Of a DNA stretch of 64,000 nucleotides, positions 53,301-62,518 are shown piece by piece; within the stretch, counting starts at the first letter, position 1, and each line of letters begins with the position of its first letter. Source of the DNA: Perna viridis (taxonomy: Eukaryota). A program made the position numbers and the translations under genes. Where the stretch lies: positions 42,383,626 to 42,447,625 of the forward strand of contig CM074516.1 of NCBI GenBank assembly GCA_037379345.1, in the 5' to 3' direction. The notes below the pieces were generated by a model. It searched no databases and was not told the DNA's origin. It saw nothing but the letters and a program-made list of their open reading frames with translations.

Positions 53301-56300
53301 GTCTGTGTTTCAAAGCCAAAAACCCTGTCAGAGATGACCTCATTAAGGGTCTACAAATGGAAAATGAAGGTATGAATTTTACGAAATGAAATTATTTTTA
53401 TTCATTATGCAATATGTAGAAAGATATCTGTTTATGGTATTCAGTTGTAGGCATGATGATTTGAAATATTACAAATATGAATAATGTTTAAAACTTATTA
53501 ATTTAAACCTGAAAATACAAGTATTGATTCCCTCCATGTAGTATTTTAATTAGTATATGTATGAGTGAAGGTCTGGTGTTATTTTTTTTTTTAATTCCCA
53601 TTGTCAACTTTCCATTTTCAGGTATAACAGTAGGAGCAGTTTGTGTGTATCCAAACAGAGTTGTTGATGCTGTAAAAGCCCTGAAAGCAGCAAATGCTTC
53701 ACATATACCTATAGCTTCTGGTAAGGGATGATATGCTCCAACTCTTGTTGTTTGTTTGTCCATTTGTTGGGGTTTAACACACGAGCAGCAATATTTCAGC
53801 TATATTCAGGCGATGAACATGAAGTGGATGATAAAATGAATATGAAATGATAAATGGGATGGGACATAAGGATAATGGGGTCGACAAATTTTGATTGCCA
53901 CTGAAAAAAGGGGAGAAGTGGGTAGGGTCAGCAATTTAGCCTCCTGTGGCGGAGCCCTATGGTTCCTACTCCAGGAGAATACCACAGTAGGGTTCTTTAA
54001 CATGCGAGGAACGTGGCATCTTCCCAACACGGTGCACCACTATGGTTTGCGGTGAGGTTTTCCGTATTATAGCCTGACAACTCCAGCATGTAACACATCA
54101 GGGTTTCTCCATTCTACCACCTGGGGCACACAACCCAGTTGCTCTGTGGGCAGAGTGCCCTAGCCCCCGGCTAAGGTTCTGAGCACTATTTAGTTGCCTT
54201 TTACGACAAGCTTAGCGCTGCTGCAGGCCTATTCTTTTGACACTCGGACCTGCCCAGGGTTCAACTCTTGTTGTAATGGGCTTATATCTACGGTAGATAG
54301 GAAGAAATTTTCTTTTGATGAGGTTTTCCATATATCAAGGACAACAAGTCTTTATTAGGCAGTCAAAATTATGTGCCATCTCCTTACAGAAGTTATTGTC
54401 CTAAGAGGTCATTTATTTTGATTTTTGTTGTGTTTGGCTTCTATATTAAAAAACATAATGGATAGAAATTAACTTTCAATTGATGAAATGTCCTTATGAA
54501 AAGAATTACAGAAGTTTCATTTCAGTTTAAGTTGTACAACAATTCTTTGAAACAGTTGAGAGGGTACGTGTGTCCATTTTAGTTATCATGAAGACTTAGA
54601 GAGTGTTGGTGCATGACATGTTCATACATCACACCTGGTAAGTGATCTAAAGGCTATATTTCTCAACAGATGAAATATGAAGCAAAGTTACTGCCATAAT
54701 CTCTCAAATAAGGTTGAAACTAACAATGTCTGGCAAATACCATGTATTATAAAGTTATTAGGTTTCTTCAAAATTTGTTTTGAAAGTTCTTCTACTTGTC
54801 AGGGAAGTTGTGGGTTCAATCAATGGCTGAGTCACATTATAGACTTACTTCAAAATGAGTACTCACTGCTTATCTACCAGGCCTGTGGTCAGAATTACGT
54901 GTCTGAATGGGATGACGTGTTTTCCCTTGGTGTGGCAGACAGGTACAAAGCAAGGTCTTACAAATACTTGCAATTTTCTGTTTTAGTGGCGACAGGATTT
55001 CCTACAGGACAGACACCATTAAAGACGAGACTTGAGGAGATCAGAACTGCTGTTGCTGATGGGGCTACTGAAATAGATATTGTTATCAACAGGGACTATG
55101 CATTGACTGGAAACTGGAGAGGTAATAAATACAAACAAAAGCAATAATGACATTGGTGATATTTCCACTGCACTAGCATCCTAAATGTCGAGTAATAATT
55201 TATTTTTGTGAAGAAAAGGTGTGAACAAAAAATAGTTTTAGCTTGGTGCACATGATACAATTTGTCTTATATGAGTTTTGTTCTATGTAACAAATATTCT
55301 CAAATCCATAGTAACAAAACCATGACCACACTTCAGAATCTAACTAATAAAGAAATATAACAAGACAAAGACAAATCAATCACCTCTTGACAGGCATCTG
55401 TGGTGGGGTTAAAGTAGTTCTATAAGGCTTTAACCATTGCCCTAAAATATAAGGTCAAAAATGAACTGAAACAACAAACACTCAATAATATATCCAATTC
55501 TCTCCATGAAATACCTCAATATACATCATATAAACAAAATGATATACCCACTTAAGAAAGCTCCCATTTACAGGAAACTAAAAAATAGTTAAAAGGGAAA
55601 ATGGTTGGTTTATAGTAAGTCTACATGTATGTTATGGGCATTATGATAAGAATGAATAATGTTCATGTTGTTTATAGTAATACATGTTGTATTTGACTAC
55701 AGGTGTTTATGATGAATACATGTCCATTTTGTTTATAGTAATACATGTTGTATTTGACTACAGGTGTTTATGATGAATACATGACCATGACCTTTATTAT
55801 AGTAATACGTGTTGTATTTGACTGCAGGTGTTTATGATGAATACATGTCCATGTTCTTTATAGTAATACATATTGTATTTGACTACAGGTGTTTATGATG
55901 AAAACATATTGTATTTGACTACAGGTGTTCATGATGAATACATGACCATGACCTTTATAGTAATACATGTTGTATTTGACTACAGGTGTTTATGATGAAT
56001 ACATGTTGTATTTGACTACAGGTGTTTATGATGAATACATGACCATGAACTTTATAGTAATACATATTGTATTTGACTACAGGTGTTCATGATGAATACA
56101 TGACCATGTTCTTTATAGTAATACATGTTGTATTTGACTACAGGTGTTCATGATGAAAACATGTCCATTTTGTTTATAGTAATACATGTTGTATTTGACT
56201 ACAAGTGTTTATGATGAATACATGACAATGACCTTTATAGTAATACATGTTGTATTTGACTACAGGTGTTTATGATGAATACATGTCCATGTTCTTTATA

Positions 56301-59173
56301 GTAATACATGTTGTATTTGACTACAGGTGTTCATGATGAAAACATGTCCATTTTGTTTATAGTAATACTTGTTGTATTTGACTACAAGTCTTTATGATGA
56401 ATACATGACCATGACCTTTATAGTAATACATGTTGTATTTGACTACAGGTGTTTATGATGAATACATGACCATGACCTTTATAGTAATACATGTTGTATT
56501 TGACTACAGGTGTTTATGATGAATACATGTCGTATTTAACTACAGATGATTATGATGAATACATGACCATGATCTTTATAGTAATACATGTTGTATTTGA
56601 CTACAAGTGTTAATGATGAATACATGTTGTATTTAACTACAGGTGTTAATGATGAATACATGTTGTATTTGACTACAGGTGTTTATGAAGAAGTTAAAGC
56701 CATGAGAGAAGCTTGTGGAGAGGCCCATCTGAAAACAATTTTAGCTACAGGGGAGCTTGGAAATATGGTTAATGTCTATAAAGCCAGTTTAGTCTGTATG
56801 ATGGCTGGTAGGTTTTAAATGGACTTACCTGTCAACATTGTCAGTTTAGTCTGTATGATGGCTGGTAGGTTTTAAATGGACTTACTTGTCAACATTGTCA
56901 GTTTAGTCTGTATGATGGCTGGTAGGTTTTAAAGTGGTTAATGTCTATAAAGCCAGTTTAGTCTGTATTATGGCAGGTAGGTTTTAAAGTGGTTAATGTC
57001 TATAAAGCCAGTTTAGTCTGTATGATGGCTGTATTGATTTAGTAAGGGATATTTGCATGGATATCTTTTGATTATTTGTTGGTGCAATAATTACAGATTA
57101 TTACTGATAGTACATATTGTTTAAAATCAATAATTAAGTTGAAATGCTATCCATGTGTTCTTGTGTCTTACGGATGTTATAGCATAATGCAAGCAAAATA
57201 TTGAAATGATTGTTAATCATGTTAATCATAAAACACAACTAACTCATATCTGTTACCGGGTAACCCTTTCTCATTGGGAGGTGATTGATTTTTGGGGTTT
57301 AATGTCCGAGCAGCAATATTTCAGCTATATTCAGACGATGAACATGAAAGTGGTGATAAAATGACCATGAATCGATGAATGAAAAAAGGGATGGGACACA
57401 AGGATAATGGGGTCGACAAATTTTGATTGCCACAAGATAAAAGGGGGATGGGTAGGGTTGGGCAATTTAGCCTCCTGTGGCGTAGCGCAAAGGTTCCTAC
57501 TCCATCAAATACCACAGCAGGGTTCTTTAACGTGCGAGGAACGTGGCATCTTTCCCAACATGGTGCACTACTATGGTTTGCAGTGAGGTTTTCCGTATTA
57601 TAGCCTGACAGCCCCAGCATGAAACACGCCAGGGGTACCCCATTCCACCACCTGGGGCACACATCCCAGTTGCTCTTTGGGCAGAGCGCCTAGCCCCCGG
57701 CTAGGTTTCTAAGCACTATTTAGTCGTCATTTACGACAAGCTTAGCGCTTCTGCAGGCCTATTCATTAGACACCCGGACCTGCATGGAGTGATTTTGTAA
57801 TATTAAAAATTCATTATTTAATATTTCAAAATATTGATTTTTGTCCACTTTAGCTTGCCATACACATGCAATTGCTCTACATGTCACAGTAATAATTAGG
57901 CAATAAACAACAAAGTTTTATTATGAAAATAATCAACACAAGGAACCACCACATGTTATGGAATTTCATTTAATATATGTTTAGTTTTGTTCCTATGCTT
58001 TTATTTCCATGTGTTAGTGTTCAAATTTTGTAACAAGTACATAAAAGCCTAAGAACAAAATATGACATTTATCAAAATAAAAAAATAAACAGTCAACAAA
58101 GTTTATCAGCATTAGTCTAGAAATAGATCTGGTGGGAATCATGGGGAGCTCCTTGATTTGGTTTGAGACCAAATCAGTTATGATTCATTATATATCATAT
58201 ATCTTGATTTCAAATTCATATATTTTAAACAAAACTGGAGCAAATATTGCAGACTTAATCCCATATTTTCAAGTCAAAATTTAAATCTCAAAAAGGCTAA
58301 CATCCAGGAGTTTCCGGGAGACTTTGCCCCCAGCCCTTCAACATCAAATTAAATTGCTTTATTTTAGTTTGATGTTTTGACATAGAATATGTTATGCACT
58401 TAAATGTATAATTTGTCTTTAGGTGCTGACTTCATAAAGACATCAACTGGTAAAGAAGGAGTAAATGCCATATTTCCTGTTGCCTTGGTGATGGTCAGGG
58501 CCATCAGGGAATTCTATCAAAGGACAGGTTACAAGGTTATTCTTGTTATAGATACCATATAGGGGAAATGGCTGACACAGAGAGATCAGTTACATGTCCC
58601 TATCAAATTATTTGAAATTTTGCAACCAGTAAAATATATTTTGGACATATCATACTGATACTATCATCACATGAAGGCTCATATCTCACCCTGTATTTCT
58701 TTATATTTTATGTACTAAGCATTCATAAGTTGTTTCAGACTTGAAATACCAACCAATATATGTTTTTCACTGATTAATTTGTGCACAACTTTTCTATTGA
58801 AAAACAATGCAATTGTCACTTGCATAAGCTGGGTTAGGTGTTTATTCCTTTACTGTGGGTTGACCATGCATGTTTCCGTCTGCCTGTAACTGTTGAATTA
58901 CTGCAGTCATTCAGTTGAATTATTCAGATTTGAAAATACCTTTAAAATATTTACTTTGTTTGTCAGGTTGGGTTTAAGCCAGCAGGAGGAATAAGAAGTG
59001 CCAAGGATGCCTGTACTTGGTTGATACTAATGAAAGAAGAACTTGGTAATGAATGGCTAAATGCCAAGATGTTTCGACTAGGTGCTAGCTCTCTCTTGAT
59101 TGACATAGAGCGACAGCTGTTTCATCAGGTTTATGGTCGCTATGCTGCAACACATGAAATTCCAATGTCATAG
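50020..59173 (+). CDS. DERA: Deoxyribose-phosphate aldolase, 8 exons, 319 aa
   Basis: Exons 50020-50050, 52619-52716, 53222-53369, 53622-53720, 54987-55121, 56679-56807, 58423-58535, 58967-59173 (960 nt, phases consistent). Motifs: IDLTTLSGDDT, AVCVYP, VATGFPTGQ, DGATEIDIVINR, HLKTILATGEL, GADFIKTSTGK (Schiff-base Lys), GFKPAGGIR, FRLGASSLL. Ends HEIPMS*. Confidence 0.96.
52837..53097. mobile_element. MITE in DERA intron 2
   Basis: Left gccataattaaaattaagtttgtttcccctta versus reverse complement of right gccacacttaaaataatgttcacttcccctta. Confidence 0.55.
53752..54261 (-). mobile_element. About 510-bp non-autonomous retroposon (SINE-like, no tRNA head), copy A, antisense in DERA intron 4
   Basis: 13-bp TSD caactcttgttgt at 53739-53751 and 54262-54274. 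The - strand 3' tail ...aatatagctgaaatattgctgctcg...ttaaacccc(aaac)n is a molluscan retroposon-type tail. Colinear with copy B. Confidence 0.85.
55660..56692 (+). repeat. Minisatellite made of the DERA exon-6 splice acceptor; 19 units of 61 or 36 bp
   Basis: Core tacatgttgtatttgactacag|gtgtttatgatgaa. The last copy (cag 56676-56678) is the one in frame with exon 6. Confidence 0.95.
56766..57036 (+). repeat. Minisatellite made of the DERA exon-6 splice donor; about 5 units of 55-57 bp
   Basis: Core cagtttagtctgtatgatggctg|gtaggttttaaa. GT at 56808, 56865, 56922, 56977 and a partial copy at 57031. Confidence 0.93.
57287..57788 (-). mobile_element. About 500-bp non-autonomous retroposon, copy B, antisense in DERA intron 6
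   Basis: Colinear with 53752-54261 over its full length. Possible short TSD gtgatt at 57281-57286 and 57789-57794. Confidence 0.85.
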
Positions 59174-60283: not shown

Positions 60284-60569
60284 TAAGATTATCTTGGTGA
60301 AGTATTGTTTGACTGTTGGATGTTATTATACCCTCCATAGGAGATGTATGACAATCACCTTGTCTCTCCATGTATCTTCTAGGTATTGACTCCTTTTGAA
60401 TTCTTCAGTGCTTTCTTAGAAAATTTATAGATGTACACGAACATGATAATTGGTGGATGCTTGTTTAAGGAGATACTTCAACTGAATAAGTGTTGAACTA
60501 TGGACGTTCAACACTTTATTTTTCACTGGAAATATGAAAAACTATGAAAAAAAGATAGCATTCTTCCAG

Positions 60570-60771
60570 AGGACGCTTACCCTACCGGTGCACCTGGTCC
60601 ATACTCTTAGTTTTTAGTGGAGTCCGAGTTGCTCATTTACTTTTGTTACTTTGTATGTATGATTTTAGTTACTTTATGTTCTTTGTTGTATATGTCTGTT
60701 TTCCATGTCTGGTCTTTGTCCCTGGATTACATTCTTTTGATTACCGCTATAACCTTGGTTCCCTTGATTAC
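60570..60771 (+). mobile_element. 5'-truncated copy of the Penelope-like element 3' UTR
   Basis: Near-identical to about 360-565. Flanked by the direct repeat tcttccag at 60562-60569 and 60772-60779 (TSD). Confidence 0.85.
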
Positions 60772-62518
60772 TCTTCCAGTAAGACATACATTCTAACAAA
60801 AAAAATTAAAATAACCACAGCTATTTAATTATGTTTTATTATTTGATGATATTGTGTTACTATTTAGTCTGAAATTGTTATCTTCTACAAAACATAGTTT
60901 CTAAATTATAACATGATAGCTTTCAAAAAAAGGGTGTATTGTCAGAAGTTAAAGAGCAATGGAGTTCAAACCACTAAGTCTCACTTTTCTATACATGCCT
61001 TGTCAGTTTCACCATTTTCAGACTTAATGTAGGGTTTTTTTTTTCAATTTTATACCATGGAATTTAGACTTTCTCTCTCACAATATCCTGTGACTGTGTG
61101 GCCTAAATTGACAAGGAAGGCTGTAAATAAGATTTCCTTAATATGATGACTTTATGACATGAACTGTATTGACTAAGTCTTCAATCCTGTCTTTGTACAA
61201 CTGTTGATATGAAGACTTCAGGGTATTGATAAAAATGAAGGAAAAATGAAGGAAAAAAAGATTTAAAACAAGTTTCATTAGAAATAAGCTCCTTTAATAC
61301 ATTGGTCCAATTAAAAATAAGTCTAGACAAACATAGATTACATATATCACAGTAAAATGGAATTCATAACAAGAACATTGCAGTATTGCACATGTACAGC
61401 AGCTAATGAAAAGATAACATAATTTAAACATATACACTATAGAATTGTTCCACTTAATCAAAAGCATACATAGACAACAATGTCAATCAGAGAGACACAG
61501 GAATATCAAAAAAACCACTAAAGTCATGTTTATTTCTAATTCAGAAACAGTTACAAACCACATACCCAATTTGTTGTTCGACAGTTGCACTTTTGTGACT
61601 ACTTGGAGTTGCACATTTTGTCATGCTAGATATACCACCACTCATATCAGAAGGTTAAGGGTAACGAAGTTATCCCCATCAGACCAAATTTTAAATAAAT
61701 CCATCTATCTGCTGCTGAGATTTTTCTCTATCATTCCATATAGTGAAAAATGGCAAGGCCCTATGAGACAGGTAGTTGATATCTGACCACAATCCATATT
61801 GCTTCCAATGTATGCCTCATTTATATAAAGATACAGACCAAATTTGAAATAAATCCATCCATTGGGAGCTGAGATTTTTCTTTGTGACGAAAATTTCCTC
61901 AATCATTACATCTAAAGCAAAAAATTTTTGCTTTGTATGACAAAATTATATTTTTTTCCATACAAAGCAAACAGGAAGTTGATACCAGACAGCACCCAAA
62001 TTCACTTACAATGTATGCCACATCTATATAAAGCCACACACCAAATTTGAAATCAATTCATCCACCTCGTTGAGTTGGGGTATAAAATTGATACACATAT
62101 AAAGTGTTTATGAAATTGAAACTTCGTTAGAGTTATCATTTGTTTGGTTGGCTTTTCTACACCTGGTATCACCTGTACCATTTGCAGTGTCTTAATTTAT
62201 GGTCCCCATAGTCCATTATTTAACTATTATGACAAATTTTACACTAATTTTTTTTATAAACAAAAATAATTTTCAGATCTAATTACCTGTATACAAAAAT
62301 ACAATGTTGTACAGTCTACTTATAACATGATATGTCTAACAACTTTAAGGCACCAATTTCTTTAAAAAAAATACTTGATACTTGAACAAACTTATGTATA
62401 TTATGTACCTGGCATGTTATTTTAAATTTTTTCCTTTGTCACATGAACTGATATTAGAAATTTTAAAGAATTTATCTACAAATTCAGATATAACAAACAA
62501 AGCATAAAAAATATCCTA

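Follow-up and report, generated by a model that had tools for sequence, protein, structure and literature searches.

Mollusc SINEs of the 'LP' (LINE-promoter) kind begin with ~70 bases that match the 5' ends of the LINEs Nimb-17_LMi, I-3_DR and RTE-9_CPB (Matetovici et al. 2016, PMC4758252). According to that paper the LP head has been exchanged among LINEs of the Nimb, I and RTE clades and is presumed, without a demonstration there, to be a promoter; the promoter/ribozyme of L1Tc is cited as an analogy. Pr77 of L1Tc is both a promoter and a ribozyme, L1TcRz (PMC3383444), and HDV-like ribozymes are well known from LINE 5' ends, those of R2, RTE and L1Tc forming a double pseudoknot of ~77 nt at the exact 5' end of the non-LTR element (PMC3383444, PMC6765202, PMC8256844). 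The viral xrRNAs (classes 1-3 and coremin) are likewise compact pseudoknotted RNAs, situated near the start of the viral 3' UTR and sometimes in tandem (PMC8374639, PMC12397905, PMC10321173); they give rise to subgenomic 3' RNAs in viruses and, as stated in a review, none is yet known from cellular RNA (PMC8374639).

The head of a mussel retroposon found in the window (the whole 64,000-nt stretch of Perna viridis DNA that was analysed) is, judged by its sequence, a homologue of this LP head, the 'Nimb-17 homology' of the scallop MESC SINEs, an assignment based on a by-eye match to the scallop heads and on the LINE match as PMC4758252 states it. Common to mussel and scallop heads (PMC4758252, Suppl. 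Fig. S2) are a CCCC-TGCAGGT start, an AAGAA linker and the core TCGTAAGAGGCGACTAA, and all five helices described below are kept in the scallop heads as judged by eye. The original prediction had called the head uncharacterised, which does not hold at the level of sequence, and had suspected similar heads in other invertebrate repeats; these were found, the scallop SINEs of PMC4758252 among them. Structure and virus link of the LP head are absent from the accessible text of PMC4758252, and the mussel family lies outside its named species. The fold is not described in the accessible parts of Kojima 2018 (PMC5786205) or of the 2024 survey of bivalve SINEs (PMC11481361), the latter giving no hit for 'LP-SINE'; nor was a description of the fold or of the virus link found in the full-text literature searched, a body that does not include most subscription journals. 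The sequence module is known, the mussel family is a new member, and the double-pseudoknot RNA class shared with viruses is apparently undescribed.

The retroposon family

The window contains two decayed, antisense, intronic copies of one retroposon of ~500 bp that align with 89% identity over the whole element. Copy A occupies 53752..54260 on the minus strand (~91% identity to the family majority) and is enclosed by a 13-bp target-site duplication (TSD; 54262..54274, second copy 53739-53751). Copy B lies at 57285..57790 on the same strand (~90% identity to the family majority), and no TSD was found at its flanks. The heads correspond to 54183..54260 in copy A, where P1 and P4 are decayed (model R1, 54.4 bits), and to 57713..57790 in copy B, where copy-specific changes have damaged P1 and P3 (model R1, 52.5 bits). 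Both copies are ordinary decayed members of their family, and the interest lies in the class of motif that they carry.

The family is large: exact genome matches numbered 8,158 for a 19-base word of the head, 5,628 for the first 20 bases and 9,474 for a 30-base word of the tail, and each of the reversed controls gave 0. Its sequence starts with GCCCCG, which bears out the CCCG that had been guessed for the decayed first bases, extends over 503 bp up to the tail and terminates in (CAAA)n. In copy A the 3' tail, a stem-loop followed by (CAAA)n (53752..53815, minus strand), is likely LINE-derived, and a body motif at 53991..54021 (minus strand; core GCACGTTAAAGA) resembles, in a by-eye comparison, the Nin/Snail SINE domain. 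The same core word is seen by eye in Snail-domain SINEs of the PMC4758252 supplement. LP-SINEs share TSDs and short 3' repeats with the mussel family, and part of a Nin domain occurs in one of the LP families (PMC4758252).

The 5' end of the element is very sharp. Exact TSDs of at least 9 bp (mode 12-14) were present in 91 of the 133 copies with head and tail; the duplication adjoins position 1 in 55 of these, overlaps it in 15, and is separated from it by one extra base in eight (5 G, 2 A, 1 T) and by 2-9 extra bases in 13. The excess of G among the single extra bases (5/8) has a p value of 0.03 against an expectation of 25%. Among the first 100 tail matches on contig C1, 65 are full length, i.e. 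they reach the first four bases. The boundary is located 2 nt 5' of P1, and a sharp boundary ~6 nt before a conserved U recurs in several families. The head contains neither tRNA nor 5S sequence and lacks Pol III boxes (no B box), in line with the non-tRNA retroposon without A and B boxes that had been predicted. The element is a non-coding, probably LINE-mobilised retroposon, and by head, TSDs and tail the family belongs to the LP-SINE kind. A partner LINE with an LP head was not seen in the same genome among the matches listed: the best 100 of 117 matches were all of the SINE's type, 30 of 42 others were all SINE as well, and two further searches gave no match.

Of the 100 loci picked by their tails, seven have unrelated flanks and begin to match the reference at position 460 (L457, L517, L530, L531, L537, L538 and L544); this fixed boundary could correspond to the LINE-derived tail or to a stop of reverse transcription. 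Copies are often nested in or placed beside other copies in both orientations (L006, L009, L012, L014, L019, L021, L023 and L025). Dense clusters with one copy per few kb occur on contig C1 at 3.33-3.55 Mb and 9.81-9.86 Mb, and at 9.836 Mb four copies follow one another at an exact spacing of 504 bp.

Fold of the head

The head of ~78 nt is predicted to form two H-type pseudoknots in tandem that would stack on each other. Numbered from the family start, P1 pairs 3-6 with 15-18 and is followed by U7, and P2 pairs 8-14 with 32-38, preceded on its 3' side by an AGAAUA linker (26-31). P3, a helix of three base pairs (AGC/GCU; 39-41 with 50-52), comes directly after P2 and is crossed by P5 (43-48 with 73-78). 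The P4 hairpin GUCG-UAARAGG-CGAC (54-57 with 65-68) and a UAA behind it are located inside the long loop of pseudoknot 2, and the module is conserved to about position 78. On the minus strand of copy A, pseudoknot 1 covers 54223..54258, with P1 at 54255-54258 and 54243-54246, the single U position, P2 at 54247-54253 and 54223-54229 and the linker at 54230-54235; pseudoknot 2 covers 54183..54222, with P3 at 54220-54222 and 54209-54211, P5 at 54213-54218 and 54183-54188, the P4 hairpin at 54193-54207 and UAA at 54190-54192.

The original prediction was made on the minus strand of copy B, and the string that it gave is present at 57713-57788. Its paired elements (UGCAGGUC/GGCCUGCA, GCGCUA/UAGUGC, the GUCG/CGAC hairpin and three downstream hairpins) are all in the sequence, and the H-type pseudoknot proposed for the 5' end agrees with the covariation of P1 and P2 across families. 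Two helices were drawn one pair too long: four pairs of the hairpin given as GUCGU/ACGAC stand, the fifth being a mutation of copy B, and the AAGCGCUA/UAGUGCUU helix is real except for its first pair, which is again a copy-B mutation. The 3' half had been drawn as a helix around an internal loop. P3 was missed because a C-to-A change breaks it in copy B; with P3 present, the 'internal loop' helix becomes the second pseudoknot. The three hairpins behind the module (54121..54176 in copy A, minus strand) exist as described, but they are specific to this family, absent from other families and outside the conserved module. Subfamilies differ in the length of both arms of the first hairpin (64 and 33 matched, 4 unmatched).

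Support for the fold comes from covariation between families, since folding energy alone is modest: z is -2.2/-3.0 for copy B, -0.6/-1.0 for copy A and an unremarkable -1.4/-1.6 for a near-consensus copy. In a sequence-only alignment of 19 intact-looking homologues, hand-picked from 47 clusters, the five-helix structure has 72 cells with double-sided changes compared with 31.5 in shuffles; none of 500 shuffles was as high, a count that is not a probability because shuffles ignore relatedness. Slid registers reached at most 32 such cells. In the same 19 sequences P1 is paired in 86% and P2 in 85% of cells, and double-sided changes affect 7/7 pairs of P2 and 2/3 pairs of P3; RNAalifold, unprompted, placed directly behind P2 a 3-bp helix in which two pairs show 11 and 4 double-sided changes. 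A motif-anchored test used 25 sequences that were hand-picked from the 47 clusters in the same manner, chance matches and badly decayed copies being left out of both sets. Here P3 is formed in 64/75 pairs (permuted mean 43; 0/10,000 permutations as high), and P5 and pseudoknot 1, scored as the best helix within fixed windows, reached 311 (permuted 236; 0/2,000) and 604 (permuted 428; 0/300), respectively. A held-out test of 21 sequences, some of them belonging to the same families and many decayed, found P3 paired in 55/60 cells and P1 in 65%, both helices lying outside the search model.

The covarying helices are P1, P2, P3 and P5. P5 is weak or missing in L232 and in the viral sequences L265, L268 and L270, and P4 with its loop never varies, although the search patterns themselves demanded P4. 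Looser viral patterns that allow P4 to vary returned only known members among the matches listed. Covariation within the family is uninformative, its copies differing by neutral decay. A pairing of the GG of the P4 loop with the bases before P1 was rejected, as those bases vary among homologues.

Carriers and possible roles of the head

A 16-base core pattern served as the search query and found at least 122 metagenome stretches, most of them animal-like repeats whose bodies behind the head differ; the anchored sequences yielded the 47 clusters. In one animal repeat family (L135, L144, L165) a tRNA-like unit comes directly behind the LP head, as it does in the scallop MESC SINEs. Two multi-copy families (L080/L180 and L128/L132) have kept pseudoknot 2 and lost most of pseudoknot 1, which suggests that the two halves are separable. 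In L235 the motif precedes an endonuclease-like frame, itself without a Pfam hit, by ~130 nt. Prokaryote genomes gave 69 matches to the core pattern, most of which look like chance because the upstream half is absent. About nine matches in prokaryote assemblies (such as L213, L225, L232, L235, L253, L255 and L258) carry the motif amid eukaryote-like repeats; we read these as likely host contamination, and a prokaryotic origin of the motif was rejected. Phage sequences gave no motif match.

The core pattern also occurs in 11 viral stretches, of which seven have the whole motif, six of them distinct. Five likely RNA viruses have it in the 3' UTR, in coding orientation and no more than 184 nt from the contig end. 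Its distance from the last stop codon is 6 nt in L270 (RdRP_3 and a noda-type capsid), 10 nt in L265/L271 (peptidase A21 capsid), 23 nt in L269 (RdRP_4), 75 nt in L272 (RdRP_3) and 100 nt in L263 (S-domain coat and a long ORF without a Pfam hit). Tandem copies are present in L263, where the second is partial and at the contig end, and in L108. The sixth carrier, L268, comes from a DNA-virus contig of 212 kb that encodes an NAD-dependent ligase; the motif there is intergenic, ~215 nt before an ORF of 1,046 codons. The helix sequences differ from one viral copy to the next, so that these are not chimeras with a single host repeat. Looser viral scans (at least 120, at least 120 and 88 stretches) added no further members among the matches listed. 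Presence in likely RNA viruses, together with the covariation, indicates that the motif is kept as RNA, and the shared fold suggests, as far as sequence comparison goes, that modules have been exchanged between retroposons and RNA viruses.

This argues against the role presumed by the discoverers of the LP head, an internal RNA polymerase II promoter that acts as DNA, with the RNA fold being secondary. The position at LINE and SINE 5' ends (PMC4758252), the lack of Pol III boxes, the precedent of Pr77 and the five G among eight single extra bases, as expected from the copying of a cap, would all agree with a promoter. As the only role it fails nevertheless, because likely RNA viruses, which have no DNA stage, carry the fold sense-oriented in their 3' UTRs, and double-sided changes in four helices also speak against it; we consider it highly improbable. 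An internal Pol II promoter at the DNA level may be an added role, weakly hinted at, that is compatible with any other reading, in analogy to Pr77 of L1Tc.

The original prediction had put a ribozyme first. A self-cleaving ribozyme of a new class would cut just 5' of position 1 and so free the element from host read-through. In several families the conserved U follows the sharp boundary by ~6 nt, which is what such an activity would leave. The compactness of the double pseudoknot and its unchanging loops (for P4 partly an effect of the search patterns) fit as well, as do the swapping of the LP head between LINE clades (PMC4758252) and the known ribozymes of LINE 5' ends (PMC6765202). Like the HDV-like ribozymes, the module is shared by autonomous and non-autonomous families and has a 3-bp P3 followed by a hairpin; in contrast to them, its strands are in tandem and not nested order, P1.1 is absent and the linker of the favoured register has no catalytic C. 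The nested P1-P2-P3-P1.1-P4 arrangement was not found in either P4 register. A strict HDV descriptor matched 0/19 homologues (2/190 shuffles) and a loose one gave scattered matches in 14/19 without a common register. For the window region and the six viral loci Rfam returned no relevant match at loose E-values, and at the gathering score 17 loci matched no ribozyme, IRES or CITE family. Hammerhead, twister, twister-sister, pistol and hatchet gave no Rfam match either; the twister and pistol core words are in 0/19, and CUGANGA, a further core word, is in 1/19 and outside the module. The predicted absence of HDV, hammerhead and twister folds is thereby borne out. In the pistol ribozyme the loop of the 5' hairpin takes part in a pseudoknot, and an A-rich linker comes next. 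The head resembles it in its hairpin-loop pseudoknot and in AGAAUA, and differs from it by the missing P2/P3 cleavage junction, the missing conserved GCG and the negative Rfam result. The L268 copy, for which an identity with the published HDV-like ribozyme drz-CIV-1 had been considered, fails the strict descriptor. A ribozyme is no longer the leading reading and seems unlikely, since likely RNA viruses carry the same fold within their 3' UTRs in the sense direction, and cleavage at that place would sever the end of the genome; moreover, the base identity 5' of P1 varies and many reads cross position 1 uncut.

These reads come from two stranded RNA runs of one study, labelled as the same species (standard RNA-seq, strand calibrated on the host gene), in which 6,891 and 11,651 reads fall on a near-consensus copy. 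Sense reads of the head region exceed antisense reads ~1.7- and 3.5-fold, and 68% and 61% of the element reads continue into unlike sequence, so that most of the element RNA detected is read-through embedded in other transcripts. Position 1 is crossed by 289 and 349 reads; no pile-up of read starts was listed there in these standard RNA-seq data, which map 5' ends poorly.

We tentatively prefer a reading in which the covariation-predicted module at the exact 5' end of the SINE stalls 5'-3' exoribonucleases (Xrn1/Xrn2), because such a block would be of use both at a retroposon 5' end and where a viral 3' UTR begins. The roadblock at the knot would fix and protect the 5' end of the element RNA: degradation of host transcripts that contain copies would proceed from the 5' side and halt at the knot, leaving, without any Pol III promoter, a unit-length RNA that starts just before P1, and a LINE reverse transcriptase would prime on the element tail and copy this RNA. 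In viruses, stalling at the knot would yield a short 3'-UTR RNA, as with known xrRNAs. The 3'-UTR placement and the tandem copies are typical xrRNA traits (PMC8374639), the element begins only 2 nt ahead of P1, and the element RNA is abundant, sense-biased and mostly inside other transcripts. On the other side, the head differs in secondary structure and sequence from the known xrRNA classes (PMC8374639, PMC12397905) and, unlike these, also occurs in cellular retroposons. The flavivirus classes 1/2 have a three-way junction core (PMC8374639), which the two tandem H-type knots lack; in class 3 of plant viruses the 3' flank pairs with the apical loop of a P1/P2 stem-loop (PMC12397905), a different topology. 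Known xrRNAs wrap a ring of ~15 nt round the 5' end (PMC8374639), whereas the head is known here from its predicted secondary structure. The head may thus work like an xrRNA and yet stand, by its predicted structure, outside classes 1-3. Ordinary frameshift pseudoknots fail to stall Xrn1 (PMC10321173), P5 is weak or absent in L265, L268, L270 and L232, the five G of eight extra bases hint at capped, promoter-made RNA, and reads run through position 1 without a pile-up of starts.

Alternatively, the head could bind a translation factor or the ribosome, as a cap-independent enhancer in viral 3' UTRs and a translation aid in LINE 5' UTRs. The SINE would then sit near ribosomes and capture the LINE protein, in analogy to Alu, which stays near ribosomes through SRP9/14. 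The 3'-UTR position in tombus-like and toti-like contigs, virus groups whose RNAs are uncapped, would suit this, as would the motif's place ~215 nt before the long ORF of L268 and ~130 nt before the endonuclease-like frame of L235. The HDV-like ribozymes of R2 are also thought to aid initiation (PMC6765202). However, the element is non-coding, Rfam gave no CITE or IRES match, and the fixed 5' end of the SINE, 2 nt before P1 and without Pol III boxes, would be left unexplained, so we doubt this role. A site for the carrier's own polymerase, used in the second-strand step of reverse transcription or for RdRp recruitment, is fainter still: the R2 protein binds a 5' pseudoknot (PMC6765202) and the share of full-length copies is high (65/100), but the carriers' polymerases are very different (RdRP_3, RdRP_4, a DNA virus and several LINE clades). 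One motif common to such carriers points to a host factor or to an intrinsic activity.

We regard it as somewhat probable that the head represents a new double-pseudoknot RNA class that has passed between LINEs, SINEs, RNA viruses and a DNA virus, and that would free the SINE from a Pol III promoter either by blocking 5'-3' exoribonucleases (a cellular xrRNA) or by self-cleavage, as a new class of ribozyme. If true, this would account for the production of SINEs that have neither a tRNA nor a 5S head, a question left open by PMC4758252. A fold common to retroposon 5' ends and RNA-virus 3' UTRs also offers a ready test case for a cellular xrRNA.

Host gene and neighbouring repeats

Copies A and B are inserted in introns 53721-54986 and 56808-58422, respectively, both of which are skipped by spliced reads. 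The host gene is DeoC/DERA-like; three of four tested exons match Pfam DeoC weakly, below the cut-off. Its aldolase exons extend over 53622-59170 on the plus strand, with five introns backed by spliced reads. One exon is flanked by tandem repeats (55659-56700 and 56766-57043) that are built from its own ends: the units of 25, 36 and 61 bp include the acceptor and the first exon bases, and those of 55-57 bp the last exon bases and the donor. Reads use a single junction on each side of this exon. Another repeat, of 209 bp and 97% identity, is found at 357-565 and 60567-60775 of the window, 60 kb apart.
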